Source: Escherichia coli (GTDB lineage: Bacteria > Pseudomonadota > Gammaproteobacteria > Enterobacterales > Enterobacteriaceae). Taken from it: 64,000 nucleotides of DNA. Each line of letters starts with the position of its first letter. Positions within the stretch are counted from its first letter, which is position 1. The stretch lies in assembly GCF_013122565.1 (NCBI RefSeq), contig NZ_CP053258.1; one strand, given 5' to 3'. The notes beneath the pieces were generated by a model. It had not been told where the DNA came from. It ran no database searches and worked only from the letters and a program-made list of their open reading frames with translations. Made by a program: the position numbers and the translations under genes. This document shows, one piece after another, positions 5,316 through 48,725 of the stretch.

Positions 5316-6081
5316 TGCTCTCTCCGGTTATGATCACATCGATCCCTTTCTCTTCCAGCGCCTGACGAAACGCCGGATCGATACCTGCGTCGGTAATCAG
5401 CTTATCGACGCTTTCAAGACTGCAAACTACGTTGGGGCTTTTACGGCCAAACTTTGATGAGTCCGCCATCAAAATCACTTCGCGCGCGGCATTGCACATT
5501 GCCTTACTGACGGTATAAACCTCGTTAAAGGTGGTTACGCCCGCATTGAGATCGATGCCGTCGGTGCCCATGAATAATTTGTCGAAGGTGAAATGCTCGA
5601 AGGCATTCTCTGCTAGTTGCCCGTGAAATGAGGCCGATTTTTTGCGAAATGTTCCACCTGGCATCAGGATAGTTTGTTCGTTATCCAATTCGGATAGCGC
5701 ATTGACGATATGCAGGCTGTTGGTCATCACCGTGATGTTATTAAAGCGCGAGAGCAGGGGAACCATCTGCAAAACGGTACTGCCAGCATCCAGAATGATC
5801 GAATCGCCATCATGGATAAAACTAACGGCAGCTTCTGCAATCAGCTCTTTCTTGTGGGTATTGATGAGTGTTTTATGATCGATAGGCGGATCGGATTCCT
5901 CTTTATTCAACACCACTCCGCCATAAGTACGAATGACGGTTCCGGCATGTTCCAGAATGACCAGATCTTTGCGAATGGTTGTGCCTGTGGTGTCAAAGTA
6001 TTGCGCCAATTCTTCAACCGAGCATTTACCCTGCTTTTGCAGATACTCCAGAATGGCGGCCTGACGCTGACGAGGTTTCAT
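5308..6081 (-). CDS. srlR: DeoR-family glucitol operon repressor
   Basis: 257 aa, N-terminal HTH followed by DeoR sugar-binding domain; synteny. Confidence 0.9.
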
Positions 6082-13432: not shown

Positions 13433-16063
13433 ATGAGCAAGAGCACCGCTGAGATCCGTCAGGCGTTTCTCGACTTTTTCCATAGTAAGGGACATCAGGT
13501 AGTTGCCAGCAGCTCCCTGGTACCCCATAACGACCCAACTTTGTTGTTTACCAACGCCGGGATGAACCAGTTCAAGGATGTGTTCCTTGGGCTCGACAAG
13601 CGTAATTATTCCCGCGCTACCACTTCCCAACGCTGCGTGCGTGCGGGTGGTAAACACAACGACCTGGAAAACGTCGGTTACACCGCGCGTCACCATACCT
13701 TCTTCGAAATGCTGGGCAACTTCAGCTTCGGCGACTATTTCAAACACGATGCCATTCAGTTTGCATGGGAACTGCTGACCAGCGAAAAATGGTTTGCCCT
13801 GCCGAAAGAGCGTCTGTGGGTTACCGTCTATGAAAGCGACGACGAAGCCTACGAAATCTGGGAAAAAGAAGTCGGGATCCCGCGCGAACGTATTATTCGC
13901 ATCGGCGATAACAAAGGTGCGCCATACGCATCTGACAACTTCTGGCAGATGGGTGACACTGGTCCGTGCGGCCCGTGCACCGAAATCTTCTACGATCACG
14001 GCGACCACATTTGGGGTGGCCCTCCGGGAAGTCCGGAAGAAGACGGCGACCGCTACATTGAGATCTGGAACATCGTCTTCATGCAGTTCAACCGCCAGGC
14101 CGATGGCACGATGGAACCGCTGCCGAAGCCGTCTGTAGATACCGGTATGGGTCTGGAGCGTATTGCTGCGGTGCTGCAACACGTTAACTCTAACTATGAC
14201 ATCGACCTGTTCCGCACGTTGATCCAGGCGGTAGCGAAAGTCACTGGCGCGACCGATCTGAGCAATAAATCGCTGCGCGTAATCGCTGACCACATTCGTT
14301 CTTGTGCGTTCCTGATCGCGGATGGCGTAATGCCGTCCAATGAAAACCGTGGTTATGTACTGCGTCGTATCATTCGTCGCGCAGTGCGTCACGGTAATAT
14401 GCTCGGCGCGAAAGAAACCTTCTTCTACAAACTGGTTGGTCCGCTGATCGACGTTATGGGCTCTGCGGGTGAAGACCTGAAACGCCAGCAGGCTCAGGTT
14501 GAGCAGGTGCTGAAGACTGAAGAAGAGCAGTTTGCCCGTACTCTGGAGCGCGGTCTGGCGCTGCTGGATGAAGAGCTGGCAAAACTTTCCGGCGACACGC
14601 TGGATGGTGAAACTGCTTTCCGTCTGTACGACACCTATGGCTTCCCGGTTGACCTGACGGCTGATGTTTGTCGTGAGCGCAACATCAAAGTTGACGAAGC
14701 TGGTTTTGAAGCAGCAATGGAAGAGCAGCGTCGTCGGGCGCGCGAAGCCAGCGGCTTTGGTGCCGATTACAACGCAATGATCCGTGTTGACAGTGCATCT
14801 GAATTTAAAGGCTATGACCATCTGGAACTGAACGGCAAAGTGACCGCGCTGTTTGTTGATGGTAAAGCGGTTGATGCTATCAATGCAGGCCAGGAAGCTG
14901 TGGTCGTGCTGGATCAAACGCCATTCTATGCGGAATCCGGCGGTCAGGTTGGCGATAAAGGCGAACTGAAAGGCGCTAACTTCTCCTTTGCGGTGGAAGA
15001 TACGCAGAAATACGGCCAGGCGATTGGTCACATCGGTAAACTTGCTGCGGGTTCTCTGAAAGTGGGCGACGCGGTGCAGGCTGATGTTGATGAGGCTCGT
15101 CGCGCCCGTATTCGTCTGAATCACTCCGCAACGCACCTGATGCACGCTGCGCTGCGCCAGGTTCTGGGTACTCATGTATCGCAGAAAGGTTCACTGGTTA
15201 ACGACAAAGTGCTGCGCTTCGACTTCTCACACAACGAAGCGATGAAACCAGAAGAGATTCGTGCGGTCGAAGACCTGGTGAACGCACAGATTCGTCGCAA
15301 TTTGCCGATCGAAACCAACATCATGGATCTCGAAGCGGCGAAAGCGAAAGGTGCGATGGCGCTGTTCGGCGAGAAGTATGATGAGCGCGTACGCGTGCTG
15401 AGCATGGGCGATTTCTCCACCGAGTTGTGTGGCGGTACTCACGCCAGCCGCACTGGTGATATTGGTCTGTTCCGCATCATCTCTGAATCGGGTACTGCTG
15501 CAGGCGTTCGTCGTATCGAAGCGGTAACCGGAGAAGGCGCTATCGCCACCGTTCATGCAGACAGCGATCGCTTAAGCGAAGTCGCACATCTGCTGAAAGG
15601 CGATAGCAATAATCTGGCTGATAAAGTGCGCTCAGTACTGGAACGTACGCGTCAGCTGGAAAAAGAGTTACAACAGCTTAAAGAACAAGCTGCCGCACAG
15701 GAGAGCGCAAATCTTTCCAGTAAGGCAATTGATGTTAATGGTGTTAAGCTGTTGGTTAGCGAGCTTAGCGGTGTTGAGCCGAAGATGTTGCGTACCATGG
15801 TTGACGATTTAAAAAATCAGCTGGGGTCGACAATTATCGTGCTGGCAACGGTAGCCGAAGGTAAGGTTTCTCTGATTGCAGGCGTATCTAAGGACGTCAC
15901 AGATCGTGTGAAAGCAGGGGAACTGATTGGTATGGTCGCTCAGCAGGTGGGCGGCAAGGGTGGTGGACGTCCTGACATGGCGCAAGCCGGTGGTACGGAT
16001 GCTGCGGCCTTACCTGCAGCGTTAGCCAGTGTGAAAGGCTGGGTCAGCGCGAAATTGCAATAA
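13433..16063 (+). CDS. alaS: alanine--tRNA ligase
   Basis: 876 aa; class II aaRS motifs and C-terminal editing/DHHA1-type region; synteny. Confidence 0.97.
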
Positions 16064-16798: not shown

Positions 16799-16891
16799 GG
16801 TGAGGTGGCCGAGAGGCTGAAGGCGCTCCCCTGCTAAGGGAGTATGCGGTTAAAAGCTGCATCCGGGGTTCGAATCCCCGCCTCACCGCCA
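16799..16891 (+). tRNA. serV: tRNA-Ser (anticodon GCU)
   Basis: 93-nt cloverleaf with long variable arm, anticodon loop CTGCTAA, 3' CCA encoded. Confidence 0.93.
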
Positions 16892-16894
16892 TTT

Positions 16895-16971
16895 GCATCC
16901 GTAGCTCAGCTGGATAGAGTACTCGGCTACGAACCGAGCGGTCGGAGGTTCGAATCCTCCCGGATGCACCA
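16895..16971 (+). tRNA. argV: tRNA-Arg (anticodon ACG), copy 1
   Basis: GCATCCGTAGCTCAGCTGGATAGAGTACTCGGCTACGAACCGAGCGGTCGGAGGTTCGAATCCTCCCGGATGCACCA; anticodon loop CTACGAA. Symbol assignment among the four copies is arbitrary. Confidence 0.93.
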
Positions 16972-17105
16972 TATTCTACGTACTTTCAGCGATGAAGGTA
17001 TGGAAGAGGTGGCGGTAATAACCGCAGGCACCAGGGAGGATAACGTTGCTTTAGCAACGGCCCGAAGGGCGAGCCGCAAGGCGAGTAATCCTCCCGGATG
17101 CACCA
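16972..17105 (+). repeat. about 130-nt element ending in a degenerate tRNA-Arg 3' end (copy A)
   Basis: Sequence directly after copy 1 ends in ...gagtaatCCTCCCGGATGCACCA, reproducing the tRNA-Arg acceptor/T-arm 3' half without the 5' half. Confidence 0.55.
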
Positions 17106-17169
17106 TCTCTTACTTGATACGGCTTTAGTAGCGGTATCAAAAAATCTGCAGTAAAGTAAGTTTCCCGAT

Positions 17170-17246
17170 GCATCCGTAGCTCAGCTGGATAGAGTACTCG
17201 GCTACGAACCGAGCGGTCGGAGGTTCGAATCCTCCCGGATGCACCA
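17170..17246 (+). tRNA. argY: tRNA-Arg (anticodon ACG), copy 2
   Basis: Identical 77-nt sequence to copy 1. Confidence 0.93.
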
Positions 17247-17308
17247 TCTCTTACTTGATATGGCTTTAGTAGCGGTATCAATATCAGCAGTAAAATAAAT
17301 TTTCCGAT

Positions 17309-17385
17309 GCATCCGTAGCTCAGCTGGATAGAGTACTCGGCTACGAACCGAGCGGTCGGAGGTTCGAATCCTCCCGGATGCACCA
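17309..17385 (+). tRNA. argZ: tRNA-Arg (anticodon ACG), copy 3
   Basis: Identical 77-nt sequence; the preceding spacer is near-identical to the spacer before copy 4. Confidence 0.93.
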
Positions 17386-17447
17386 TCTCTTAATTGATAT
17401 GGCTTTAGTAGCGGTATCAATATCAGCAGTAAAATAAATTTCCCGAT

Positions 17448-17524
17448 GCATCCGTAGCTCAGCTGGATAGAGTACTCGGCTACGAACCGAGCGGTCGGAG
17501 GTTCGAATCCTCCCGGATGCACCA
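17448..17524 (+). tRNA. argQ: tRNA-Arg (anticodon ACG), copy 4
   Basis: Identical 77-nt sequence. Confidence 0.93.
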
Positions 17525-20433: not shown

Positions 20434-20506
20434 AAAAAGGCCACTCGTGAGTGGCCAAAATTTCATCTCTGAATTCAGGGATGATGATAACAAATGCGCG
20501 TCTTTC
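20434..20506 (-). ncRNA. micA: MicA (SraD) small regulatory RNA
   Basis: Minus-strand sequence GAAAGACGCGCATTTGTTATCATCATCCCTGAATTCAGAGATGAAATTTTGGCCACTCACGAGTGGCCTTTTT matches the MicA sequence as I recall it, including the intrinsic terminator; convergent with gshA and divergent from luxS. Confidence 0.85.
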
Positions 20507-20574: not shown

Positions 20575-21090
20575 ATGCCGTTGTTAGATAGCTTCACAGT
20601 CGATCATACCCGGATGGAAGCGCCTGCAGTTCGGGTGGCGAAAACAATGAACACCCCGCATGGCGACGCAATCACCGTGTTCGATCTGCGCTTCTGCGTG
20701 CCGAACAAAGAAGTGATGCCAGAAAGAGGGATCCATACCCTGGAGCACCTGTTTGCTGGTTTTATGCGTAACCATCTTAACGGTAATGGTGTAGAGATTA
20801 TCGATATCTCGCCAATGGGCTGCCGCACCGGTTTTTATATGAGTCTGATTGGTACGCCAGATGAGCAGCGTGTCGCTGATGCCTGGAAAGCGGCAATGGA
20901 AGACGTGCTGAAAGTGCAGGATCAGAATCAGATCCCGGAACTGAACGTCTACCAGTGTGGCACTTACCAGATGCACTCGTTGCAGGAAGCGCAGGATATT
21001 GCGCGTAGCATTCTGGAACGTGACGTGCGCATCAACAGCAACGAAGAACTGGCGCTGCCGAAAGAAAAGTTGCAGGAACTGCACATTTAG
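20575..21090 (+). CDS. luxS: S-ribosylhomocysteine lyase (AI-2 synthase)
   Basis: 171 aa with the HTLEHL metal-binding motif. Confidence 0.96.
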
Positions 21091-21107: not shown

Positions 21108-21140
21108 GCCGGGCAGGTGACACCACCGCCCGGTTTTTTT
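21108..21140 (+). terminator. luxS intrinsic terminator
   Basis: gccgggcaggtgacaccaccgcccgg hairpin followed by ttttttt; the T-run overlaps the stop codon of the convergent minus-strand gene at 21139. Confidence 0.75.
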
Positions 21141-22251
21141 ACCTTTCAATCACCCGATACTCCACGCTATGTGCTTCATCAGGTTGAGGAACTTCCAGCC
21201 TTGAGGCCATCCGCAGCACGACCGCTTCAGGAACTGCATACTCGCGTCTGGCATTTTGCTGCTTCCATTGCGTCCATGGCACTTCCAGATAAACGATTTT
21301 TACTCGTGCGCCGTAAGCCGTAAACAGACTGATGAGCTGGCTACGCAGCTGGCGGGTAATGTTCGTTGCATTCCAGATGAACGGCTTTTTCTGGCGTAAA
21401 AAAACGCGTGCCTCTTCTTTTGCCTGTTGCACAATACGCCCGGTGGCGGTTTTGTCGTCCGGACTGGCATTGATTCGCCGCCGCATATCATCAAGGCTGA
21501 TAACGTCAATTCCCTGGCACTGTTCACTGATATAGCGATCTTTGCCCATACCCGGTAAGCCACACAGCAAAATAACCTCAAAAGGTTCAGCCCCCCAGGG
21601 AACAAAATCAGGAGAACTTTGCTCATGAGTCAGGTAGTGCCAGCGTGCGGAATCAGAAACGAACGGGCGCACTTTTCCCCAACACTGTTGCTCCTGGCAA
21701 AACAGCTCGAACAGATCGATGCGTTCCAGCATTGATTGCTGATCCGGGCTTTGGCGACCAAGCAGATCGGCACGAGCAAGCAAAGCGAGCAGACGCGTGT
21801 CGATGCGCATTGCAGCCGTGAGCAGCAAACGCTCCGGTTCCGGACGTTCCAGTAACCACAGCGGTAACCCATGCAGACGCACCAGCGCAACAATTTGCTC
21901 GCGTAGCACGAACGGCGTAGGGATATCGCGCCATAAAATTTGTCGGGCCGTCAATTCGCCCCGCCGAGCATGGCCAGGCGACTGAATACGTCCGTTTTCC
22001 TGCACGGTAGTGCTGCGCTTTTCAACATCATGCAATAACGCCGCCGCCCATAAAACTTCCTGCTGTTGAGCGGGGAGTTGCTGGAATTCTGGCAGAGTAA
22101 CGAGGGCGTTCAGCACCATTTCGGTATGCACGCCGACGTCGCCTTCACCATGATGCTCCGGGTCTTGTGGCGTGTGATGCATCTCCTCAACCCAACTGAA
22201 ACGCTGGAGTAGTGTCGACCAGCGTTTATCGTCGGTAAGCTGCCAAATCAT
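21139..22251 (-). CDS. two-domain protein: N-terminal HD-family phosphohydrolase fused to C-terminal P-loop polynucleotide-kinase-like domain (putative RNA end-healing enzyme)
   Basis: 370 aa. N-terminal half carries the HD signature H..H ([11 protein letters not shown]), HD (ALLHDVEKR), H (SPGHARRG), D (LARADLLGR). C-terminal half carries Walker [13 protein letters not shown], then SLDDMRRR and [10 protein letters not shown]...[13 protein letters not shown]...VPEAVVLRM, which parallels the T4 Pnk kinase-domain pattern as I recall it. Start overlaps the upstream gene by ATGA. Confidence 0.7.
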
Positions 22252-22955
22252 GACTGTTCTCCATAAGCGAACTCATGGGCCATCCGCGCCCGTTGCCAGT
22301 GTCGTTTCCAGTGCACGGTGGTTTTGACATGATTTTTGCGCACATACTTGAAGACGTTATGCGAAAAGTCAGCGACGGAAAACGCATCACGATTCCGGCT
22401 GACAATGCCTTCCAGCGTACAGGGTTGCCCGGTTTGTGTATCCCAGGGATCGAACGCGCCGCGCGCATTGGTCAGTGCCAGAAAATCACGTTGCCAGCTT
22501 TTTTCATCATTCCCCGGCTGCGGACCGGAGATTTCGGGAACGCAGGGGAAATCAAACAGAGCGGCGTAAAACTGCACCTCTTCCCAGCTCAGCCACATAT
22601 CCTGGCAGCGAACGGCAAACAGGTAAAAGTCCTGTTCCAGCGCGCGGTATTCAATGGAATGAACGGCGTAGAGATTTTCACCAAACAGTTCCAGATCGCC
22701 GAGATCGTTTTTCAGCAGTTGCCAACGCTGGCGAATTTTATAAGTCCATGCCGACTGCGTAGGCGCAGCATGGGAACGGGCAAACACGCCGTAGCGGTTA
22801 AGGCAGTTATTTTCGCCGTCGAGTTTTTCTGTGTGCACCAGTTGCGCAATGGCCTGTAAATCCTGCCAGTAATCGGCGTTAATGCGGTCATCGCTGGTGG
22901 TGCCAGGGGAGAAAGGATAATGCCAGGTTCTCCCGTATTTTCGTTGGGTATTCAT
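22248..22955 (-). CDS. small nucleotidyltransferase of the ATP-dependent RNA ligase type (putative RNA sealing enzyme)
   Basis: 235 aa. Candidate covalent-nucleotidyltransferase motifs: motif [10 protein letters not shown] (KxDGxN), motif IV-like TLEGIVSRN, motif V-like lysine pair [10 protein letters not shown]. Translationally coupled to the HD/kinase gene. Confidence 0.65.
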
Positions 22956-23212: not shown

Positions 23213-24751
23213 TTAGTGCGCACCGCCTCCGCCGCCACCTGCGCCAAAGGGCGGTTTAGCAAACCACACCAGCCCCAGCAGGACGAGGAATATCCCGGCT
23301 GACATCCAGAAGATCTCATTGGCGGAAATAATCAGCCCCTGGTTAGTGATCTGCTGGGCAATCCAGCCTGATGCCTGCTGTTGCGTCATCCCAAGCCCTT
23401 CCAGTTGACTATACATCGCCTGGGCATTCGGGTTGAACGGGTTTACCGACTCAGTCAACTGCGCATGGTGCATCGACTCGCGGTTGGTCCACATGGTAGT
23501 GGTTATCGATGTGCCGATAGACCCCGCCAGCGTTCGCGTAAAGTTGGAGAGGCTCGATGCCGCCGCCAGTCGTTCCGGTGGCAAACCAGACAGCGTAATG
23601 GTGGTCAGCGGCATAAAGAAGCAGGCCACCGCAAACCCCTGGATAAACTGCGGCCATGCCGACGCGCCAAAATCCATACCTGGTTCAAAGGTATAGGCAC
23701 GCCAGTAGAAGCAGACGGCATACATAATAAAGCTGAAGGTTACCAGCCGCCGCATATCCAGTTTATGCGCGAAGCGGCCGATAATTGGCGACAGGATCAC
23801 CGGAATAATCCCTACCGGCGCAGAGGCCAAACCTGCCCAGGTCGCCGTGTAACCGTAGACCTCCTGCAACAACTGCGGCAGCAGAACAATAGCGCCGAAG
23901 TAGAGCATATACGCGAGGCTGATACACAAGCAGCCGATGGTGAAGTTGCGCGACTTAAACAACGACAGATCGACTATCGGGTTATCGTCGGTCAGCTCCC
24001 AGACAATCAGGAAGCAGATAGCCACCACCGCCACCACGGTAAGGATGATAATTTCCTGTGATGAAAACCAGTCCAGCTCTTTACCGCGGTCGAGCATAAT
24101 CTGCAGGCTGCCGATACCAATAACCAGCAGTGCCAGCCCCACGGCATCAATTCGCCGCCGTTCGGTGCGGGTTTCACGTCCGCGCAGAGTTTGCAGTGTC
24201 ATCAACACCACCGCCACGCCAATCGGCACGTTGATGAAGAATATCCAGCCCCAGTGGTAATTATCGCTGATATATCCGCCGAGGATTGGGCCGCAAATTG
24301 GCGCGACAATCACCGTCATCGACCACAACGCCAGCGCGATTGAGCGTTTGGCTGGCGGGTAATTATTCAGCAATAGACTTTGCGAAAGCGGGATCAACGG
24401 CCCGGCGACAATCCCCTGAATCACGCGGAAGAAGATCAGCATATTCAGGCTGCTGGAGACACCACACGCCCACGACGCAATAGCAAAGGCGATGGTTGAC
24501 CAGAGGAACAGTTTCACTTCCCCGACGCGCTTTGCCAGCCAGCCGGTAAGCGGGATCGAGATGGCATTCGCCACCCCGAAAGAAGTGATTACCCACGTTC
24601 CCTGGCTGAGCGATGAGCCCAGATTCCCGGCGATAGTGGGGATCGCCACGTTAGCAATGGTGGAGTCCAGCACCTGCATGAATGTCGCCAGTGACAGCGC
24701 AATCGTCATAATGACCAGTTGCGCGCCTTCCAGCGGTTTTTGCTGTTGCAT
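23213..24751 (-). CDS. emrB: multidrug efflux MFS permease (14-TMS DHA2 type)
   Basis: 512 aa beginning MQQQKPLEGAQLVIMTIALSLATFMQVLD, glycine-rich C-terminus; start trimmed from the ORF-track 24760. Confidence 0.93.
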   Translation of the reverse strand: MQQQKPLEGAQLVIMTIALSLATFMQVLDSTIANVAIPTIAGNLGSSLSQGTWVITSFGVANAISIPLTGWLAKRVGEVKLFLWSTIAFAIASWACGVSSSLNMLIFFRVIQGIVAGPLIPLSQSLLLNNYPPAKRSIALALWSMTVIVAPICGPILGGYISDNYHWGWIFFINVPIGVAVVLMTLQTLRGRETRTERRRIDAVGLALLVIGIGSLQIMLDRGKELDWFSSQEIIILTVVAVVAICFLIVWELTDDNPIVDLSLFKSRNFTIGCLCISLAYMLYFGAIVLLPQLLQEVYGYTATWAGLASAPVGIIPVILSPIIGRFAHKLDMRRLVTFSFIMYAVCFYWRAYTFEPGMDFGASAWPQFIQGFAVACFFMPLTTITLSGLPPERLAAASSLSNFTRTLAGSIGTSITTTMWTNRESMHHAQLTESVNPFNPNAQAMYSQLEGLGMTQQQASGWIAQQITNQGLIISANEIFWMSAGIFLVLLGLVWFAKPPFGAGGGGGGAH

Positions 24752-24767
24752 CACACGCACCTCTGGA

Positions 24768-25940
24768 TTAGCCAGCGTTAGCTTTTACGATATCGTCGAT
24801 CAGTTTATTGACAGGTGCCAGGCTGATTTCACGCGCGGTGCTTACCGCTACCGGTGTGGAACGTACTTTATTTGCCAGTACCTGACCGTCACGGTTAGTG
24901 GTATTGACGCTCACCAGCGTGGACAAACCGATACGCAGCGGGTATTGCTCGAGCTGTTTCTGGTCCAGTTCAATACGAACAGGCAGACGCTGAACGACTT
25001 TGATCCAGTTACCGGTGGCATTTTGCGCCGGAAGCAGTGAGAACGCGCTACCCGTGCCCATATCCAGACCAACCACTTTACCGGTGTATTTCACATCATC
25101 GCCGTAAATATCGGTGGTGATGGTGACCGGCTGACCGATACGCATATTGGCAATCTGCGTCTCTTTAAAGTTGGCATCCACCCACATATTGGTGGCTGGA
25201 ACGACCGCCATCAGCGGCGTCGTTGGGCTAATTTGTGCCCCAGGCTGTACCGCGCGGCGGGAGACATAACCGGTCATCGGACTGACAATACGGGTACGCT
25301 CCAGCGCCAGCCAGGCGTTACGTACTTCGGTGGCAGCCTGTTGCACGGCAGGCTGATCTTCCAGTTTAGTCCCCAGAATCATCGCCTGATTGGCATTGTA
25401 TTGTTGAATAGCGACGTCCAGTTGTGCCTGGGCACTGGTGACGGCGTCGCGGGCGTGTTGCAGCTCTTCGCGACCAATCAGGTTGGCATTGCCCAGCGGC
25501 ACACGGCGGTTGTAGTCGCTTTGTGCTTTCGCGAGGGCGATTTTTTGCACCTCAATATTCGCCTGCAACTGTTTGCTGTTAATCATCAGCTGGTGGGTTT
25601 GGCGAACGCTGGAAGCCAGTGCAGTTTTGGCTTTTTCAAACGCCTGGCGAGCATCTGTCGGGTCGAGAGTGACCAGCACGTCGCCTTCTTTTACAAAATC
25701 GGTGTTATCGGCCCAGACTTTCGTCACGCTGCCAGACACCTGAGACATAATTTGAATCTGATTCCCTGCCACGTATGCGTCATCGGTTTCTTCGAAGTGA
25801 CGCAGTACCAAAAACCAATAAATCCCTATCGCTACGGCAATAATTATAAAGAGCAAGGTGAGAAGGAGGAGCAGACGCTTACGTTTGCCGCTCTTCTTTA
25901 CCGGTTGCTGCGGGGTTTGAGTCTCCGCATTTGCGCTCAT
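24768..25940 (-). CDS. emrA: multidrug efflux membrane fusion (periplasmic adaptor) protein
   Basis: 390 aa beginning MSANAETQTPQQPVKKSGKRKR, one N-terminal TM helix, coiled-coil and beta-barrel adaptor regions. Confidence 0.93.
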   Translation of the reverse strand: MSANAETQTPQQPVKKSGKRKRLLLLLTLLFIIIAVAIGIYWFLVLRHFEETDDAYVAGNQIQIMSQVSGSVTKVWADNTDFVKEGDVLVTLDPTDARQAFEKAKTALASSVRQTHQLMINSKQLQANIEVQKIALAKAQSDYNRRVPLGNANLIGREELQHARDAVTSAQAQLDVAIQQYNANQAMILGTKLEDQPAVQQAATEVRNAWLALERTRIVSPMTGYVSRRAVQPGAQISPTTPLMAVVPATNMWVDANFKETQIANMRIGQPVTITTDIYGDDVKYTGKVVGLDMGTGSAFSLLPAQNATGNWIKVVQRLPVRIELDQKQLEQYPLRIGLSTLVSVNTTNRDGQVLANKVRSTPVAVSTAREISLAPVNKLIDDIVKANAG

Positions 25941-26066
25941 ATTGTTCTCCACGATCTTCTTAACTCATCGGCTGAGCCGACCTGCTTGCCAAAAAGGCCA
26001 GCATGTTGCGATGCTGGCCAGTCATTTTTTCTTTTATAAATCTGGATTTTTGAGCGAGATGACGCG

Positions 26067-26597
26067 TTAGCTCATCGCTTCGAGAACCACACCGTCTTGT
26101 TCCATCTGGTCGAGACGGGAGAGCAATTTGCGGGTGATTTGCTCGAGCTGATCTTTTTCTGTTGTACTGAGCGCGGACCAGAGTTGATGCAGGCAGTTAT
26201 GCTGCGGTGGTAAAACCTCGCGCAAAAACTCGTGACCTTTTTCCGTTAATTGCAGATGCAGGCAGCGGCGATCGTTATCGCTTTCACGACGTTCGATCCA
26301 ACCGCGTTTTTCCAGTTCATCGGCAATACGCGTCGCGTTGGTACGGGATGATCCAAGAGCACAACTCAATTCAGAAGGCTGAATACTGTGGTTTTCCTGA
26401 GACTCCAGCGTAATCAACGCCATAAACAACGTCTCGTTAATCCCCTGAGCCTTCAGCATTTTATTGCGGTTCTCCAGCAGCTTGCTTTGCATGTGCATGC
26501 AAAGACGAGTCAGAAGGATCTCCTGATAAGGAAAATCTTCGTGGCGGCTGGCGCGAAATTTTAGCATTTGTTCAATGGGCGTAAACGAACTATCCAT
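26067..26597 (-). CDS. mprA: MarR-family repressor of emrAB
   Basis: 176 aa MarR-type winged helix; first gene of the mprA-emrA-emrB operon. Confidence 0.92.
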
Positions 26598-26687: not shown

Positions 26688-27023
26688 TTATATAATCGCC
26701 ATCACTTTCCAGGCGAGCCCGTAGGCCAGCGCACTAAGCAGTGTTGGGATGATAATGCTGCGTGTTTTATAGAAACTGGCACCCAGTACCGCGAAGCCGA
26801 CCAGCGTGGGCACGAAACGGCGTGTATCGTGCATCACTTCTGGTGCGGTAGAGACAACCAGCAGAGCGCATATCGAGGCGATGCCAATGGTGTCGAGCAA
26901 TATGCCTATCACGCCACGTTTGGTTGGGCGGGCATTACCCACACGCAGGCGCAGCGGCAAATAGCGGAAACAATAATTCGCCGTGCCAACCAGTAACCCA
27001 AGCAGCAAAACCTCATAGCTCAT
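26688..27023 (-). CDS. ygaH: small membrane subunit of branched-chain amino acid (valine) exporter
   Basis: 111 aa hydrophobic AzlD-like protein overlapping ygaZ. Confidence 0.85.
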
Positions 27024-27750
27024 CGGGCGCTCCTTGCCAGAATGCCTGGATTAACGCAGTGAGGCAGCCACAGACAATGCCTGCCAGAATGGCGACGGGA
27101 ATAGAAAATAGCGTTACGCCTGCAAGGGCACCAACTAACGCTGCGGTAACGCAAAGAGATTGTTTGCGCTGGAAAGAGGCGAGCAGGAAACTCATAAAGA
27201 GTGCCGGAAGCATAAAACCTAATGCAGCTTCAACGGCGGGATAACCTTGCAGCAAGCCGCTGCCGGAGAATGCCCCTATTACCGTACCAAATACCCACGA
27301 TGACCATGAACTGAAGGCAATGCCGATCATCCAGTTCTCGCTCCAGCGGCGATTATTGCGTACCAGTTTTGCGGTTGCGGCGGCAAAAACCTCATCCGTC
27401 AGGCCAAACGCCCATAGGGCGGTTTTCGATTTTTGCAGACGCTGAATAATACGGCTACGCAGTGACGGGCCATACAAAACATGGCGAACATCCATTGCCA
27501 TGACGGTCAGTGCAGCAACCCACAAACTACTCCCGGCTGCCAGCATCGCGGTAATGACGAACTGGCTCGCGCCTGCATAAATGATGCAGGAGAAAAAAAC
27601 GCTTTCGAGAGGAGAGAATCCCAGACGGGTCGCATTCAGACCGAACGCAAAGGCCACCGGAATATAACTAATAACAATCGGTAAACTGTCTTTGCATCCT
27701 TCCATGAAGGTCGCCGAACCAGGAGCAGGCAGTGGAGTAGGGCTTTCCAT
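27013..27750 (-). CDS. ygaZ: AzlC-family membrane subunit of valine exporter
   Basis: 245 aa polytopic membrane protein; synteny with ygaH. Confidence 0.85.
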
Positions 27751-27873
27751 AGAGTGTACGCTTAACGATTGTTAATATTATAAATAGACTGAATGAATAT
27801 CTTAACCTTATCAGACTGATGGGCTTCTTAACACCCTTATAAGTGTAAAGCCACGAAAACGGTTGCTGATTGC

Positions 27874-29058
27874 TTAATTTGCGGCTTCCTGACGATGAAA
27901 ACCTCGCCACCAGACCAGTAAGTTAACCAGGGCAATCGTCGCGCCAGCCAGACAAACGCCAGCCCAACCGCCATGTTGCCAGGCTGAGGCTGAAATTAGC
28001 GATCCGGCGGCACCGCCAATAAAGTAGCTGGTCATGTAACCTGCGGTCAGGCGATTACGCGCATCAGGATGTATTCGATAAATTACCGTCTGGTTAGTGA
28101 TATGCACGCCCTGCACGGTGAGGTCCAGCACCAGGATGCCGATAATCAGCGCCAGTACGGAAGTGTGACCAAACCAGATTGCCAGCCATGAAAGTAACAG
28201 CAGAAGCAGACCGAAAGTTGTTGTGTGGTGCGATTTGCCCTTGTCGGCAAAACCGCCCGCCGGACGAGCGCCCAACGCTCCGGCAGCTCCCGCAAGTCCA
28301 AACAGACCAATTACACCATCGCTGTAGTTAAAAGGCGGTGCGGCAAGCAAAAAGGCCATTGAGGTCCAGAGAATGCTGAAGTTGGCAAAGGTCAGGCAGC
28401 CCAGCAACGCGCGGGTGCGCAGGATCTTATCGCTGATAAACATGCTGAAAACGGAACCAAGCAACTGTGGGTAGTTGAGGTGGGTTTCTGATTTCATTTG
28501 TGGCAGACCACGCCATAATGCCAGCGCCATCAGTGCCATTAACACCGAGGCAACCCAAAAGACGGTGCGCCAGCCGCCGAGGTTTGCCAGCAATCCGGCA
28601 ACGGTCCGTGCGAGTAAGATCCCCAGCAGCAGACCGCTCATAATGGTGCCAACCACTTTGCCGCGTTTGTCCGGTGAAGCCAGCGTCGCTGCCAGCGGAA
28701 CCAGAATTTGTGCCACGACTGAGAATAAACCGGTTAATGCCGTACCGAGGATCATCATCGCCAGCGACTGACTGCTGGCGGTAATCAACATGCCGCATGC
28801 CGCCAGTAAGGTCATCGAGACAATCAGGCGGCGGCGTTCAAACATATCACCGAGGGGAACAAGAAACAGCAGACCGGCGGCATAGCCCAACTGCGCGGCG
28901 GTAACAATAAAGCCTGCCGAACTGGCGGAAAGGGAAAAGTTACGCGCGATGGTGTCGAGCAATGGCTGGGCGTAATAGTTACTGGCTACCGCCAGACCGG
29001 TGGCGATAGACATCAGCACGATCAGCGCCGGGCTAAGCTCATGATTAGGTTTAGTCAT
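27874..29058 (-). CDS. ygaY: MFS transporter (12-TMS)
   Basis: 394 aa uninterrupted ORF with MFS-type helices; position between ygaZ and proX. Confidence 0.8.
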   Translation of the reverse strand: MTKPNHELSPALIVLMSIATGLAVASNYYAQPLLDTIARNFSLSASSAGFIVTAAQLGYAAGLLFLVPLGDMFERRRLIVSMTLLAACGMLITASSQSLAMMILGTALTGLFSVVAQILVPLAATLASPDKRGKVVGTIMSGLLLGILLARTVAGLLANLGGWRTVFWVASVLMALMALALWRGLPQMKSETHLNYPQLLGSVFSMFISDKILRTRALLGCLTFANFSILWTSMAFLLAAPPFNYSDGVIGLFGLAGAAGALGARPAGGFADKGKSHHTTTFGLLLLLLSWLAIWFGHTSVLALIIGILVLDLTVQGVHITNQTVIYRIHPDARNRLTAGYMTSYFIGGAAGSLISASAWQHGGWAGVCLAGATIALVNLLVWWRGFHRQEAAN

Positions 29059-29154
29059 TATTTTTGTTCATCAGGTGATGATTAAGCTGGAAATCAATAA
29101 TAGCGGATGTTGATGAATCTGGGATGAAAGATAGATTGTTGAAATGTGCGGTGT

Positions 29155-29249
29155 GGTTTGTAGGCATGATAAGACGCGCCAGCGTCGCATCAGGCATTGT
29201 GTACAGAGCGGCGGATGCGGCGAAAACGCCTTATCCGCCCGAATAAAAA
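29155..29249. repeat. REP/BIME cluster between proX and ygaY
   Basis: gtaggcatgataagacgcgccagcgtcgcatcaggc and gatgcggcgaaaacgccttatccg palindromic units. Confidence 0.6.
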
Positions 29250-30242
29250 TTACTTCTGCGCTGCCAGCGCCTCATTCACCCAGCCATCGAACTGCTGCTG
29301 GTGGGCTTTGATCCAGCCATCAACATGGCCCTGAATATCTCCTTCTGAGGCTTTGCCGTCATGCATAATGGCGTTCTGGGCGTTAATATCTGCCACTGGC
29401 AACTGCATAATGGCAAACAGTTTCGCTGCTGCCGGGTTTTTCTCGGCCCAGACTTTGTTGGCAACGATATGCATGGTGCTGACCGGGAAGCCGTAATTCG
29501 CGCCATTCGGCAGTTTGGTATCGGCATTTTTATCGCCCGGCAGTGCAGAGAACGGCACCTGCAACCAGACCACATCTTTCCCTGGCTTCAGCTCATTACT
29601 CACCCAGTACGGCGTCCAGGTGTAGTAAAACACCGGCTTACCCTCTTTGTAACGACTGATGGTGTCAGCCATCATCGCCGCGTAGTTCCCCTGATTATGC
29701 GTCACGGTATTGGTCAGTTCATACGCGGCAAGCTGGTGGTTGATCGCACCTTCGCAGCCCCAGCCTGGGTTACAGCCGGTTAAATCCGCTTTACCGTCGC
29801 CGTTGGTATCGAACAGTTTGGCGATCTTCGGATCTTTCAGTTGTGCGATGTTGGTGATTTTGTACTGGTCGGCGGTTTTCTTATCGATCAGGTAGCCCTG
29901 TGCCGCGCCGTTAACAAATACCCCTTCACGATAAAATTTCTTCTCGCCACCGGCAGCTTCGTACATGTTGTCATGCAGCGGCGTCCAGTTCACGGCGGTG
30001 AAGGTTGCATCGCCGGAAGCAAGCGAGGTGTAGCCAACGTTGTAATCCACTTCGCTGGGTTTGTTGACGGTATAACCTAATTTCTCCAGCGCACGACTGA
30101 CCAGCAGCGTCTGGAAGGTTTCTTCAGTGATGGTGCTCTGAACTGGATTAACAGTAATGCCTTTGCCCGGCAGATCGGCAGCAAAAGTTTGTGTAGAGAT
30201 AAGCGTGGCAAACGCTGTCGCAAAAAGTACGCTATGTCGCAT
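29250..30242 (-). CDS. proX: glycine betaine/proline ABC transporter periplasmic binding protein
   Basis: 330 aa beginning [21 protein letters not shown] (signal peptide); start trimmed from the ORF-track 30290. Confidence 0.93.
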
Positions 30243-30298
30243 TGTTATTCCTTTTTTTGGCAGGGTGATATGCCCGGCGTCACCGGGCAAGTGCAGAG

Positions 30299-31363
30299 TT
30301 ACTTAATGAATGGGCGGGTCAGCAGACCGACAGGGCCAGTGGTGTACCAGCGACGGTTGCCGCGACTGCGTGAGTCGCGCCCAACGGCCTGCGTCAGGCG
30401 ATCGAGGATAATGGCGAGGATCACAATCCCGACGCCGCCAACGGTGGCAAGCCCCATATCCAGACGACCGATACCGCGAAGTACCATCTGACCCAGCCCG
30501 CCGACGGCAATCATCGAGGCAATGACCACCATAGAAAGGGCCAGCATCAGCGTCTGGTTAACGCCCGCCATAATGGTCGGCATCGCCAGCGGTAACTGAA
30601 CTTTGAACAGCATCTGACGCGGGCTGGCACCGAATGAGCGCGAGGCTTCAATCAGATCCGCGGGAACCTGGTTAATCCCCAGAATGGTCAGACGGATAAT
30701 CGGCGGCAGAGCAAAGATGATCGTCACCACCACGCCCGGCACGTTACCGATACCAAACAGCATGACGATTGGCACCAGATAAACAAACGCAGGCGTGGTC
30801 TGCATGGCATCAAGCAGTGGACGAATAATTTTCGCCGCTCGCGGACTTCTCGCCAGCCAGATCCCCAACGGCAAACCGATGACGATACAGAACAGCAGGG
30901 CGGTTAACACCAGCGCCAGAGTAACCATTGCCTGCGACCAGGCACCGATTGCGCCGATGGCAATCAGCGAAACCAGCGTCGCCACGCCCATTCCGACCCC
31001 GGAAATCTGCCAGGCGATGAGAGCGAAAACGATAATCGCCACCGGCGCGGGCATACCCAGCAGCAATTGCTGGAAACCGTTGAGGATATAATCAACCGGA
31101 ACGCGCACGCCCTGGAAGACGGGACGGAAATGGGTAACGACCCAGTCGATCCCTTCAGTGACCCAACTGTCGAGCGGGATCAGCGTTTTATGGAACGGAT
31201 CGAGAATATTAAAATGCTCGACGTTTGGCGCAGGCGTACTGGTCAGCCAGTCAGCACCACCGCCGTCAGTCGGTGCAGTCGCCGGTGTACCCCAGGCGTC
31301 TGCGGATTGTGCGGCACTGTCCGTCGCTGGCGTGGTATCCCACGGATTATTTTGATCAGCCAT
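30299..31363 (-). CDS. proW: glycine betaine/proline ABC transporter permease
   Basis: 354 aa polytopic protein with ABC permease EAA-type loop. Confidence 0.93.
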
Positions 31364-32558
31364 TATTTACCCCCTCACGATCTAAAGCGCGCAGCAGCAT
31401 TCCTTTCGAAATGATGCCGACATACTGTTGGTCCTCGTCGACCACGGGCACCGCACAGGGTGCCTGTCCGACATGAGAGAGCAACTCGCTAAGAGGCGTT
31501 TGTGCATCGACCGCTAACGGTGCATCAATCAGCGCCGCATCAAGACCTTGCTGCTGCGTTAACGCGGCTTTAAGCGAATCGATAGACACTGCGCCGACAA
31601 ACTTATTACCGCGTTCGATAACGTAGCCATATTCGCGATCTTCATCCTGCAATAATTTCAGTGCCGAACGTGGGCCGAAGCCAGGGGTTTTACGAATTAA
31701 GCCATTCGGTGTCCGGCGGGCAATATCTTTCGCACTGAACACCTGACTAATATCAACGCCACGGAAGAAGGTACGGACATAATCATTCGCCGGATTATTG
31801 AGAATTTCATCCGGTGTGCCGACCTGTACCACTTCACCATTTTGCATAATGGCAATTCGGTCGCCAATACGCATGGCTTCATCGAGATCGTGGGAAATAA
31901 AGACAATGGTGCGCTGATGTTTCGCCTGTAATTTTACCAGCTCATCCTGCATCTCGGTGCGAATTAATGGATCGAGCGCCGAGAAGGCTTCGTCCATTAA
32001 TAATATATCCGGATTAATCGCTAACGCGCGGGCTAATCCCACACGTTGACGCATCCCGCCAGAGAGTTCATCCGGGTAGCTGTGGGCATAATTTTCCAGC
32101 CCGACCTGACGCAGTGCATCAATGGCTTTTTCCCGGCGTTCTTCGGCATTAATTCCGGCCAATTCCATACCGAACGCAGTATTGTCCAGCACGGTCATAT
32201 GCGGCATTAAGGCAAAGGACTGGAAGACCATCGCAATCTTTTTTCTGCGCACCTCACGGAGTTCGGCGTCGGATATTTTGGCAATATCCACACCATCAAT
32301 CAGTACTTGCCCGCGGGTGGGTTCAATCAGGCGATTGAGAAGGCGTACCATTGTGGATTTACCCGAGCCGGATAATCCCATGATGACAAATATCTCGCCT
32401 TCTTCAATGGCCAGACTGGCGTCTTTTACGCCAAGCGATAGCCCAGTTTTTTCCAGAATTTGTTCTTTTGAAAGTCCTTGTTCGATATATTTGAACGCTC
32501 GCTGTGGATGCTCACCAAATATTTTATAAAGATTTTTAATTTCTAATTTAATTGCCAT
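31356..32558 (-). CDS. proV: glycine betaine/proline ABC transporter ATPase with tandem CBS domains
   Basis: 400 aa; Walker [13 protein letters not shown] signature LSGGMRQR, C-terminal CBS pair. Confidence 0.95.
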
Positions 32559-41720: not shown

Positions 41721-43121
41721 TCAGCGCGTATTATGAACGGGTGTTTTTTGCCACAATACCAGCTTTTTCCAGCGCGCCATAATCGGCACGGTACAGATGA
41801 TCCCTATCGCTAATAAGCCGGTAGAAATGACCTCGAGTTGCTGCGCCGGGCGGAATAACATCACCACCAACACAAAGGTAATAAAGCCAATCACCAGCCA
41901 GGTGAGCCACGGATATAGCCACATGCGCAGGCGAATTTCTCCGCCCTCCGCCAGCAGGATTTTACGCATCCGCAACTGTGAAACGGCGATGACTAAATAA
42001 ACCAGCAGGGCGATAGCGCCGGAGCTGTCGATCAGGAATTTAAACACTTTCGCAGGCGCGTAATAATTCACCACCACCGTTAAAAATGCCGCTCCGGTGG
42101 AGAGTAACACCGCCACGTACGGGGTTTTACTGCGGTTGATTTTACCCATTACTGCGGGCGCATCACCGCGACGGCTTAAGGAGTAGAGCATCCTGGAAGC
42201 GGTATACAGCGCCGAGTTCAGGCAACTGGTTACGGAAAGTAATATCACGCAGTCCATGATTAATTTCGCATGGGGAATATTGAGCAATTCCAGAACCGAG
42301 CGATAAGAACCAACGGCTTTCAGCCCCGGCATATTCCACGGTATTAATGCCACGACGACAAAAATAGAGCACAAATAGAAGATAGAAATACGCCAGATAA
42401 CCGAGTTGGTGGCGCGGACAATATGTTTTTCCGGCGTGTCGGATTCCGCGGCGGCAATGGTGACAATTTCTGCGCCCATAAACGAGAACATGGTGATCAA
42501 CATCGCGCTTAATACCGCACCGAAACCGTTGGGCATAAAGCCGCCGCTATCCCACAATCTTGAGATCCCGCTCACTTCGGCATAAGGGTAAAAACCGCTA
42601 ATTGCGACTGCACCAAGGAAAATAAAGGCCAGGATAGCGATGACTTTGCACAGCGCCAGCCAGAACTCAAATTCGCCGTAGTTTTTAACGCTTAATAAAT
42701 TACTGCCAGTTAAGGCGAGGGTAATGACGAGGGAAAATAACCAGATGGGAATGCCTGGAACCCACGAGTGCAGGATCATAGCGGCGATGTTGGCTTCCAG
42801 GGGGATAACCAGTACCCAAAACCACCAGTACAGCCAGCCGATGGTATAGCCCGCCCAGCGGCCAATGGCTTTATCGGCATAGGTGGAAAACGAACCGGTA
42901 TCGGGCGTGGCAACCGCCATTTCCGCCAACATCCGCATAATCATAACCACCAGTAATCCGGCGAACAGATAGGCCAGTAATACCGCCGGGCCCGCTTCGG
43001 CGATGGCGACGCTGGAACCGACAAACAGACTTGCGCCGATAACACCGGCAATAGACAACATGGTGACGTGGCGTGACTTCAGCCCGCCGCCTAACTCATG
43101 TGGTTGCGATGATTGCCCCAT
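41721..43121 (-). CDS. gabP: gamma-aminobutyrate permease (APC family)
   Basis: 466 aa starting MGQSSQPHELGGGLKSRHV; start trimmed from the ORF-track 43184. Confidence 0.93.
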   Translation of the reverse strand: MGQSSQPHELGGGLKSRHVTMLSIAGVIGASLFVGSSVAIAEAGPAVLLAYLFAGLLVVMIMRMLAEMAVATPDTGSFSTYADKAIGRWAGYTIGWLYWWFWVLVIPLEANIAAMILHSWVPGIPIWLFSLVITLALTGSNLLSVKNYGEFEFWLALCKVIAILAFIFLGAVAISGFYPYAEVSGISRLWDSGGFMPNGFGAVLSAMLITMFSFMGAEIVTIAAAESDTPEKHIVRATNSVIWRISIFYLCSIFVVVALIPWNMPGLKAVGSYRSVLELLNIPHAKLIMDCVILLSVTSCLNSALYTASRMLYSLSRRGDAPAVMGKINRSKTPYVAVLLSTGAAFLTVVVNYYAPAKVFKFLIDSSGAIALLVYLVIAVSQLRMRKILLAEGGEIRLRMWLYPWLTWLVIGFITFVLVVMLFRPAQQLEVISTGLLAIGIICTVPIMARWKKLVLWQKTPVHNTR

Positions 43122-43189
43122 CCTGAATCCTCTCGAAAGTGTGTCACTTGGGAGAGCGCCCCGACATTTCCCGCGTCGGGTCACGCGTT

Positions 43190-43340
43190 TAATTGTTATT
43201 GATTCTTTTTGCCGGAGAGCGGCTCCGCCTTATCCGGCCGACATAGATTTATTCCTGTTCACGTACAGATTGTCGGATGCGGCGTAAACGCCTTATCCGA
43301 CCTGGATCACCGTAGGCCGGACAAGACGCGCAGCGTCGCC
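43190..43340. repeat. REP/BIME cluster between gabT and gabP
   Basis: Several palindromic units (gccggatgcggcgtaaacgccttatccg, gtaggccggacaagacgcgcagcgtcgcctcc). Confidence 0.6.
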
Positions 43341-43358
43341 TCCGTCATGGGAGCGGTG

Positions 43359-44639
43359 CTACTGCTTCGCCTCAGCAAAACACTGGCTGATGATCTCCAG
43401 ACCCTGACGGATCTGAGCGTCTTCAATGGTGAGCGGTACAAGGATGCGTAGCACGTTGTAATACGGGCCGCAGGAGAGAAGAATCAGGCCCTTATCGCGG
43501 GCGCGCGCCACGATCTCGGCGGTGAGTTTTGCGTCCGGTTTGCTGTGATCGCCATCTTCAAACAGCTCGATGGCGATCATCGCTCCCAGCCCGCGTACGT
43601 CGCCGATCTCCGGGTGTTTTTCGGCTATCGCCAGCAATCCGTCTTTTAGCTTCTGCCCCAGATCGTTGGCTTTTTGCAGCAGATTTTCCTGCTCAAACAC
43701 CTTCAACACTTCCAGCGCAGCCACGCAGGCAATCGGGTTACCCGCATAGGTGCCGCCCAGACCGCCTGGAGCGACGGCATCCATCACTTCCGCGCGCCCG
43801 GTGACGCCCGCCAGCGGGAAGCCGCCCGCGATCGATTTCGCAAAGGTGGTAAGATCCGGCGCAACGCCCATCTGCTCCATCGCAAACAGCGTGCCGGTAC
43901 GCCCCGCGCCGCTCTGCACTTCATCGGCAATCAGCATGATCCCGTGCTCGTCACACAGCGCGCGTAAACGCTGCATAAAAGCAGGCGTCGCGGCGTAGAA
44001 ACCGCCTTCGCCCTGAACCGGCTCAATCACGATGGCGGCGATATCTTCCGGCGCAGCGTCATTTTTGAAGATTCGGTGGATACTGGCGATAGCGTCATCT
44101 TCACTGATGCCGTGCAGCGGGCAAGGATAAAGCGCGCGATAAACATGCCCTGGCATCAGGCCCATGCCCGCAGAGTACGGATTCACCTTGCCGGTCAGCG
44201 CCAGCGTGTAATGCGTGCGCCCGTGATACGCGCCGCTAAAGGCGATGGTGCCGCTACGTTTGGTGGCAGCTCGGGCGATTTTCACCGCGTTCTCCACCGC
44301 TTCGGAACCCGTGGTGACCAGCAGCGTTTTCTTGGCAAAATCGCCCGGCACCTTCTGATTCATAATCTCGCACAGCTCCAGATACGGCTCGTAAGCCAGC
44401 ACCTGGAAGCAGGTGTGCGACAGTTTTTTCAACTGCGCTTCCACCGCCGCAACCACTTTCGGATGCAGGTGCCCGGTATTGAGCACCGCAATCCCTCCCG
44501 CGAAATCAAGATACTCACGGCCTTCAACGTCCCACACCCGGCAGTTTTCCGCGCGGTCAGCGAAAATCGGGTGAATTTGCCCAACGCCACGAGGAATTGC
44601 CTGACTGCGGCGCTGCATTAACTCTTTATTGCTGCTCAT
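43359..44639 (-). CDS. gabT: 4-aminobutyrate aminotransferase (PLP-dependent)
   Basis: 426 aa class-III aminotransferase. Confidence 0.95.
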   Translation of the reverse strand: MSSNKELMQRRSQAIPRGVGQIHPIFADRAENCRVWDVEGREYLDFAGGIAVLNTGHLHPKVVAAVEAQLKKLSHTCFQVLAYEPYLELCEIMNQKVPGDFAKKTLLVTTGSEAVENAVKIARAATKRSGTIAFSGAYHGRTHYTLALTGKVNPYSAGMGLMPGHVYRALYPCPLHGISEDDAIASIHRIFKNDAAPEDIAAIVIEPVQGEGGFYAATPAFMQRLRALCDEHGIMLIADEVQSGAGRTGTLFAMEQMGVAPDLTTFAKSIAGGFPLAGVTGRAEVMDAVAPGGLGGTYAGNPIACVAALEVLKVFEQENLLQKANDLGQKLKDGLLAIAEKHPEIGDVRGLGAMIAIELFEDGDHSKPDAKLTAEIVARARDKGLILLSCGPYYNVLRILVPLTIEDAQIRQGLEIISQCFAEAKQ

Positions 44640-48503: not shown

Positions 48504-48725
48504 TTATTGTGATCAAAGACAACAAGTTAGTAACATTTAGCGTAGGGTATTAAGGCAAAGTGAGACAGGAAATGAATAACTAAAGCAACAGGTTAGGGGG
48601 GAATTACCATCAGAGAACAGATTATCTGGTCGATAAAAAACGGTAAATGGCTTCACTGCAAAATGACCGTTAGTAAACTAAACATATTATCTGCCCCGTT
48701 TTAGCGGGGCAGATATAACATTAAA

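Follow-up and report, generated by a model that had tools for sequence, protein, structure and literature searches.

Introduction

YnfM of Escherichia coli is reported to export glutarate and other dicarboxylates, and this export to be sensitive to the protonophore CCCP (PMC12622518). The Salmonella orthologue of YnfM, CuiT, has been claimed to be a copper importer (PMC13101709), a claim according to which the YnfM family is not made up uniformly of exporters. YgaY (P76628) is listed in TCDB under the number 2.A.1.36.3, that is, in the YnfM family (PMC5417439). In the literature, ygaY of K-12 is treated as a cryptic gene with in-frame stops, and it has been deleted as a pseudogene control and used for neutral integration into the chromosome. 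Transcript levels of ygaY in K-12 are low and are partly due to read-through from proU; they rise after hyperosmotic shock, and more so in an stpA mutant (10.1101/2023.07.10.548347). It was also found in K-12 that ygaY DNA is bridged by nucleoid-associated proteins to the downstream regulatory element (DRE) of proVWX (10.1101/2023.07.10.548347).

No experiments on intact YgaY were found in the searchable literature, in which the mentions of ygaY concern its use as a K-12 pseudogene or integration site, the chromatin study of proU and the TCDB listing. K-12, which has served for most work on E. coli transporter genetics, lacks the intact gene. Here, an intact ygaY was studied in a stretch of 64,000 nucleotides of E. 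coli DNA (assembly GCF_013122565.1, contig NZ_CP053258.1), which is referred to below as the window.

Results

The ygaY gene and its surroundings

In the ORF list, an uninterrupted ORF of 394 codons that starts with ATG and contains zero internal stops was found at 27874..29058 on the minus strand. It is flanked by ygaZ (27013..27750) on the downstream side and by proX (29250..30242) on the upstream side, and all neighbouring genes lie on the same (minus) strand. The sequence-only reading of this DNA had described an uninterrupted 394-aa MFS permease between ygaZ and proX; its coordinates, length and neighbours proved right, and the minus strand can now be added. According to the ORF and the syntenic annotation, ygaZ encodes the AzlC-family subunit of the YgaZH L-valine exporter, and it is followed downstream in the ORF list by ygaH (26688-27023), emrR/mprA (26067-26597), emrA (24768-25952) and emrB (23213-24760), all on the minus strand. 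Upstream, proX encodes the binding protein of the glycine betaine/proline ABC transporter and measures 993 bp in K-12 and other strains; the proX ORF in the list runs to a TTG at 30290, and the annotated 330-aa product begins at the ATG at 30242. Farther upstream on the minus strand, proW (30299-31363) and proV (31356-32558) are present in the ORF list.

The gene order nrdF-proVWX-ygaY-ygaZH-emrR(mprA)-emrAB matches that of K-12, and proX, ygaY and ygaZ have the same order and strand in the window, K-12, PapRG-06-5, F9792 and Citrobacter. By synteny, the window ORF is ygaY. It is a genuine gene and not a chance ORF, because it encodes a protein that matches the MFS_1 profile, is recorded on at least 1000 public contigs, has a low dN/dS and has orthologues of the same length.

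The spacer between proX and ygaY (29059..29249, minus strand, 191 bp) was characterized by Rfam, a promoter scan and alignment to K-12, where it is almost identical. It contains a REP/BIME-type palindromic element followed by an AT-rich leader. This element was matched by Rfam naRNA4 (RF02564, nucleoid-associated ncRNA 4) with 73.5 bits at 29163-29240 on the minus strand. The search with the window gave many extra short matches per genome because of elements of the REP/BIME type. Neither a strong sigma-70 consensus promoter, in a scan of the minus strand, nor a strong Shine-Dalgarno sequence was found ahead of the ygaY ATG in the 191-bp spacer. The sole promoter-like site of the region, TTAAGA-17-TATAAT (27805->27777), lies upstream of ygaZ in the 123-bp ygaY-ygaZ spacer (27751..27873, minus strand); it is a consensus match only, from a scan in which the number of sites was not above the shuffled expectation.

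The lesion in K-12

In MG1655, EcoCyc/RefSeq list ygaY (b2681, NC_000913.3) as a pseudogene, 1178 bp long, and the NCBI annotation pipeline PGAP labels the gene in a K-12 derivative as "MFS transporter, frameshifted". Pairwise alignment of the window gene with the K-12 locus revealed one lesion: the single length difference is a stretch of 7 bp that is missing in K-12, at gene nucleotides 256-262. The statement in the sequence-only reading that ygaY is disrupted in K-12 was thus borne out, the product of b2681 being cut to 88 aa by this deletion; an identical intact gene in K-12, which would have spoken against the statement, was not found.

The deletion lies in a perfect 7-bp tandem direct repeat, GCGGCAT GCGGCAT on the coding strand (twice ATGCCGC on the plus strand), which was located by sequence and alignment at 28790..28803 (gene on the minus strand) and covers codons 86-90 in the middle of TM3. 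Two copies are present in the window and one copy (GCGGCAT) is left in K-12. To judge by the sequence, such a loss of one repeat copy is the signature of slipped-strand or short-direct-repeat deletion. After the deletion, the K-12 frame reads ...LLAAC-stop, and the 88-aa product equals residues 1-88 of the window protein. A second K-12 ORF of 305 aa corresponds to residues 90-394, and its ATG overlaps the stop of the first ORF (ATGTTGA); Gly89 is the sole residue absent from these two overlapping ORFs. When the 7 bp were re-inserted in silico, K-12 ygaY encoded 394 aa that were 100% identical to the window protein. The two genes differ by 33 substitutions in 1185 nt, and 33/33 of these are synonymous (dS 0.11, dN/dS ~0.01). 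No further inactivating changes in K-12 ygaY were seen in the alignment to the window gene. As read from this comparison, K-12 ygaY carries exactly one lesion and is otherwise undecayed.

Among the alleles compared, a perfect repeat goes with Cys88 (TGC) only; this codon occurs in strain H7, in FDAARGOS_1260, in the K-12 progenitor allele and in the window. In Citrobacter and the majority of the other alleles, residue 88 is Gly and the repeat is imperfect (GCGGCAG GCGGCAT or GCAGCGG GCGGTAT), and therefore Cys88 is derived. The slippage in K-12 took place at the perfect direct repeat that arose through the change of the Gly88 codon to Cys. As judged from the alleles, the window carries the same slippage-prone sequence as the K-12 progenitor, in a form that is still unslipped.

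Occurrence of intact and broken alleles

The ygaY region was found in 5,417-5,418 of 5,426 complete E. coli genomes. The best match to the window among these genomes had 97.9% identity over 24 kb (20000-44000) and 98.8% over the ygaY region (27700-29300); none of them is closely related to the source genome. The K-12 deletion junction was counted with a 45-nt probe designed not to seed in genomes with two repeat copies, and it was matched in 353 of the 5,426 genomes. Sixty of these matches were picked evenly down their ranking, and 60/60 were K-12 laboratory derivatives (MG1655, BW25113, C600, J53, TG1, JM109, MC4100, S17-1, EPI300 and others); in these 60 junction genomes, the 7-bp deletion was not seen in any unrelated wild lineage.

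A query with three repeat copies was also run against the 5,426 complete genomes. No three-copy repeat was detected; the 353 matches at >=99% identity were K-12 genomes, each aligned as two pieces, which reproduces the junction count. The idea of a phase-variable contingency locus at the 7-bp repeat was rejected, as zero genomes carried three copies.

At least 25 wild isolates, whose sources are humans, pigs, dogs, poultry and water, carry the K-12 allele with both repeat copies (1185/1185 identity). Because the unslipped K-12 allele is present in these wild isolates, the deletion arose very recently and is limited to the K-12 lineage. Ten non-K-12 genomes were sampled across the similarity ranking out of ~5060 in the collection, and 10/10 had an unflagged ygaY CDS of 1185 bp whose product differed from that of the window by 0-3 aa. 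The exact window YgaY protein is recorded on at least 1000 public contigs.

Within ygaY, the 107 bp at 28747-28853 are unusually polymorphic: in ~2,100 genomes, 7-8 of the 107 positions deviate from the window, without an indel. This polymorphism at synonymous sites suggests deeply diverged allele classes at ygaY. Counting K-12 deletions by identity bands of a 107-bp query was abandoned, since the deletion (93.5%) falls in the same 90-95% band as gapless SNP-rich alleles (92.5%).

Orthologues and selection

Against other E. coli ygaY alleles, dN/dS was 0.01-0.05 at dS 0.05-0.13, and gene-wide dS reached 0.11-0.13. Identity between YgaY and its orthologues is 97-98% for E. fergusonii and E. marmotae, 95-96% for E. 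albertii and 93% for both Citrobacter and Salmonella. Their length in E. fergusonii, Citrobacter and Salmonella is 394 aa, the same as in the window, and synteny around ygaY is unchanged in Citrobacter. These substitution patterns show that purifying selection on the YgaY protein is very strong.

The YgaY family comprises at least 1152 representatives (50% clustering) at E<=1e-30. A homologue with 56% identity on a short metagenome contig is encoded beside genes for an AraC-type regulator and an FMN-binding protein. A 596-aa predicted protein from an ENA metagenome contig of 5.4 kb scored 1089 bits against YgaY at 73% identity, which is above the self-match of YgaY; duplication or fusion in the gene call is the probable explanation.

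Fold and family of the protein

The score of YgaY on the Pfam profile MFS_1 (PF07690) was 140.3 bits (E 9.7e-41), the gathering cut-off being 33.4. The AlphaFold2 model, built on an alignment of 99 diverse homologues, had a mean pLDDT of 95.6 and a pTM of 0.93 and showed 6+6 helices joined by a linker helix (196-209). Its helices span 10-40, 45-65, 75-94, 99-126, 129-161 and 163-184 in the N half and 211-239, 247-272, 276-298, 301-329 and 331-393 in the C half, where TM11 and TM12 were merged by DSSP. The hydropathy profile has twelve peaks that agree with the model, with Arg/Lys clusters in alternate loops, so both approaches give the 12 TM helices expected of the permease that had been read from the ORF. 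Both termini and the Arg/Lys-rich 2-3, 4-5, 6-7, 8-9 and 10-11 loops are cytoplasmic. The break point in K-12, at residue 89, lies in the middle of the helix 75-94 (TM3) of the model.

MFS motif A (G-x3-D/E-R/K-x-G-R/K-R/K) is present in a variant form, G70-D-M-F-E74-R-R-R77, in the TM2-TM3 loop, and the TM8-TM9 loop holds another copy, G268-G-F-A-D272-K-G-K. Across 99 family members, G70, D71 and the membrane-embedded R151 (TM5) are nearly invariant. The DHA1 antiporter motif C (G-x3-G-P-x2-G-G) is absent from TM5, which reads DKRGKVVGTIMSGLLLGILLARTVAGLLANLGG and contains no G-P.

A Foldseek search of the PDB placed the DHA1 drug/sugar:H+ exporters SotB, MdfA and NorA at the top, with TM-scores of 0.80-0.85 and a probability of 1.00 for the MFS matches; a sequence search of the PDB with YgaY gave weak, distant MFS matches only. 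No curated NCBIfam equivalog reached its cut-off for YgaY or the 99 family members. The best full-length NCBIfam alignments, all below their cut-offs, were to SotB-type PRK03545 (64 bits vs 401), Cmx/CmrA, Bcr/CflA (52 bits vs 200.9 for TIGR00710 and 303 for NF008314) and EmrD (39 bits vs 479). YgaY has a DHA1-like fold, yet it is not filed as a member of DHA1 (TC 2.A.1.2) because motif C is absent from TM5. In BLASTP, YgaY proved homologous to K-12 YnfM over its full length (26% identity over 409 columns, E 6e-21), and R151 of TM5 was aligned to an Arg in YnfM.

Other features of the window

A two-gene accessory insert lies on the minus strand at 21139-22955, between luxS (20575-21090) and emrB. 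One gene codes for 370 aa, with an AAA_33 kinase-type domain at the C-terminal end (E 7e-31), and the other for an RNA_ligase of 235 aa (PF09414, E 4e-28). To judge by these domains, the insert looks like a polynucleotide-kinase/RNA-ligase pair for RNA repair; PADLOC gave no defence-system match for it. The insert was present in 999 of the 5,426 complete E. coli genomes and stands at the same place in the syntenic F9792. In K-12, luxS presumably abuts emrB, and hence the insert would be absent there. In F9792, the closest full-length match, the AAA-ATPase gene of the insert (14140-15252 of its region, syntenic to window ~21139-22251) is annotated with internal stops, and the window copy is an open 370-aa ORF. 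An alpha-amylase-family gene of F9792 (41725-43977 of its region, syntenic to window ~48700-51000) is likewise annotated with internal stops.

The structural RNAs detected by Rfam in the window were the MicA sRNA upstream of luxS (20435-20506, minus strand), a cluster of five tRNAs downstream of csrA (16799-17521, plus strand; one tRNA-Ser and four tRNA-Arg in F9792), a single tRNA (51538-51610, plus strand) and tmRNA (ssrA, 59381-59743, minus strand).

Discussion

With a probability of about 90%, ygaY of the window (27874..29058, minus strand; ORF list, Pfam, AlphaFold2 and K-12 alignment) is an ordinary functional allele of a core enterobacterial 12-TM MFS transporter of the YnfM family, which was lost in the K-12 lineage alone by a 7-bp deletion. 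The sequence-only reading had supposed that this strain retains a transport function lost in K-12. The intactness of the gene agrees with this; the state is not specific to the strain, as it is shared by practically all non-K-12 E. coli and by neighbouring genera. It is already known that an intact ygaY is the norm of the species, from which K-12 deviates. The following points were not found in searchable papers: that the lesion consists in losing one of the two copies of a perfect, Cys88-derived 7-bp repeat; that it is restricted to 353 genomes of the K-12 lineage; and that the K-12 allele is otherwise undecayed.

Strong purifying selection suggests that intact ygaY would retain a transport function. 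YgaY would work by alternating access, with the proton gradient as the driving force, and would most likely export a small organic, possibly anionic, metabolite; from its YnfM family and its DHA1-like fold, our best guess is a proton-coupled exporter. An exporter of a small organic anion is proposed because YnfM, the nearest paralogue characterised so far, exports glutarate and other dicarboxylates, R151 is shared, and efflux pumps make up all of the best matches by full-length profile and by structure. A bolder version of this appears unlikely: YgaY would export an endogenous organic anion, for example a C4-C5 dicarboxylate as its paralogue YnfM does, would be strongly conserved and important to the physiology of the cell, and would have gone unnoticed through its loss from K-12 by very recent slippage. 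The glutarate catabolism cluster (glaH-lhgO-gabDTP-csiR), which lies ~13 kb off in the syntenic F9792, was considered as a clue to the substrate and set aside, being too distant and separated by unrelated genes.

The direction of transport may also be the opposite one, and YgaY would then be a functional importer, either a symporter or a metal importer. For the N-terminal half of YgaY, the highest-scoring profile is that of the aromatic acid/H+ symporter subfamily (TIGR00895, E 5e-22); motif C of the antiporters is missing, and the Salmonella orthologue of YnfM, CuiT, was reported to import Cu (PMC13101709). However, the full-length profile and structural neighbours of YgaY are efflux pumps, and its E. 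coli paralogue YnfM acts as an exporter. The position of ygaY in a row of exporter genes (ygaZH, emrAB) also points away from import, adjacency being weak evidence. Import by YgaY therefore seems somewhat doubtful as set against these findings.

It was also considered whether the intact gene yields no protein, being H-NS/StpA-silenced DNA downstream of proU that is kept for a structural role in the H-NS bridge between the proU DRE and ygaY. The bridge by nucleoid proteins and the low transcript level, both observed in a K-12 background (10.1101/2023.07.10.548347), fit this explanation, as does a start that has no consensus promoter or Shine-Dalgarno sequence ahead of it. Nevertheless, a role of the DNA structure would neither hold 33/33 differences synonymous over 1185 bp (dN/dS ~0.01) nor keep 93% protein identity and equal length into Citrobacter and Salmonella. 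The synonymous-only change and the conservation of orthologues speak for selection on the YgaY protein, and a cryptic gene is very improbable. Finally, nothing might have been lost in K-12 if the 88-aa ORF and the overlapping 305-aa ORF (ATGTTGA) were translated by coupling and formed a working split transporter. Every residue but Gly89 is still encoded in K-12, whose allele has acquired no further change. An MFS permease such as LacY can work in split form when the cut lies in a loop; cuts within helices abolish the function of LacY fragments. The break in ygaY is mid-helix, in TM3 (75-94 in the model), and not in a loop, the undecayed allele is explained equally well by a very recent lesion, given the identical intact allele in wild isolates, and both curators and PGAP class K-12 ygaY as a pseudogene. 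Such a split transporter can hardly be credited.

If ygaY is a functional transporter gene lost in K-12, as preferred here, K-12 is an incomplete reference: a strongly selected core gene of Escherichia, Citrobacter and Salmonella is missing from the main strain of transporter genetics. Transporter inventories and metabolic models based on K-12 omit YgaY, which is potentially active in strains with the window allele. The K-12 lesion, one GCGGCAT copy, is trivially repairable. Were the organic-anion exporter reading true, restoration of the 7 bp in MG1655 would expose a transport phenotype that is absent from the K-12 literature.

Comparison with known transporters and alleles

The best structural matches of YgaY are SotB (6kkk/6kkl), MdfA (4zp0, 6euq) and NorA (8ttf), with rmsd of 2.3-3.9 A over ~385 columns, and SotB is also its best full-length sequence-profile match. 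However, identity to these three pumps is merely 15-18%, and motif C of TM5 is missing in YgaY. YnfM (b1596), which gives its name to the TC 2.A.1.36 "acriflavin-sensitivity (YnfM)" family, belongs with YgaY to the same TCDB family; both are 12-TM MFS proteins, and the Arg of TM5 and the His of TM10 are conserved in both. At 26% identity, YnfM is a paralogue of YgaY and not its orthologue, and ynfM stands beside the divergent gene of a LysR-family regulator, ynfL, whereas ygaY has no such gene.

In E. coli elsewhere, ygaY occupies the same position between proX and ygaZ and measures 1185 bp in non-K-12 strains, as in the window. Intact copies in other strains are annotated as "MFS transporter", for example WP_000165699.1 and WP_000165683.1; the window protein differs from the commonest E. 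coli protein, WP_000165699.1, in having Cys88 in place of Gly88. Compared with K-12, the window keeps both 7-bp copies, and its reading frame is continuous.
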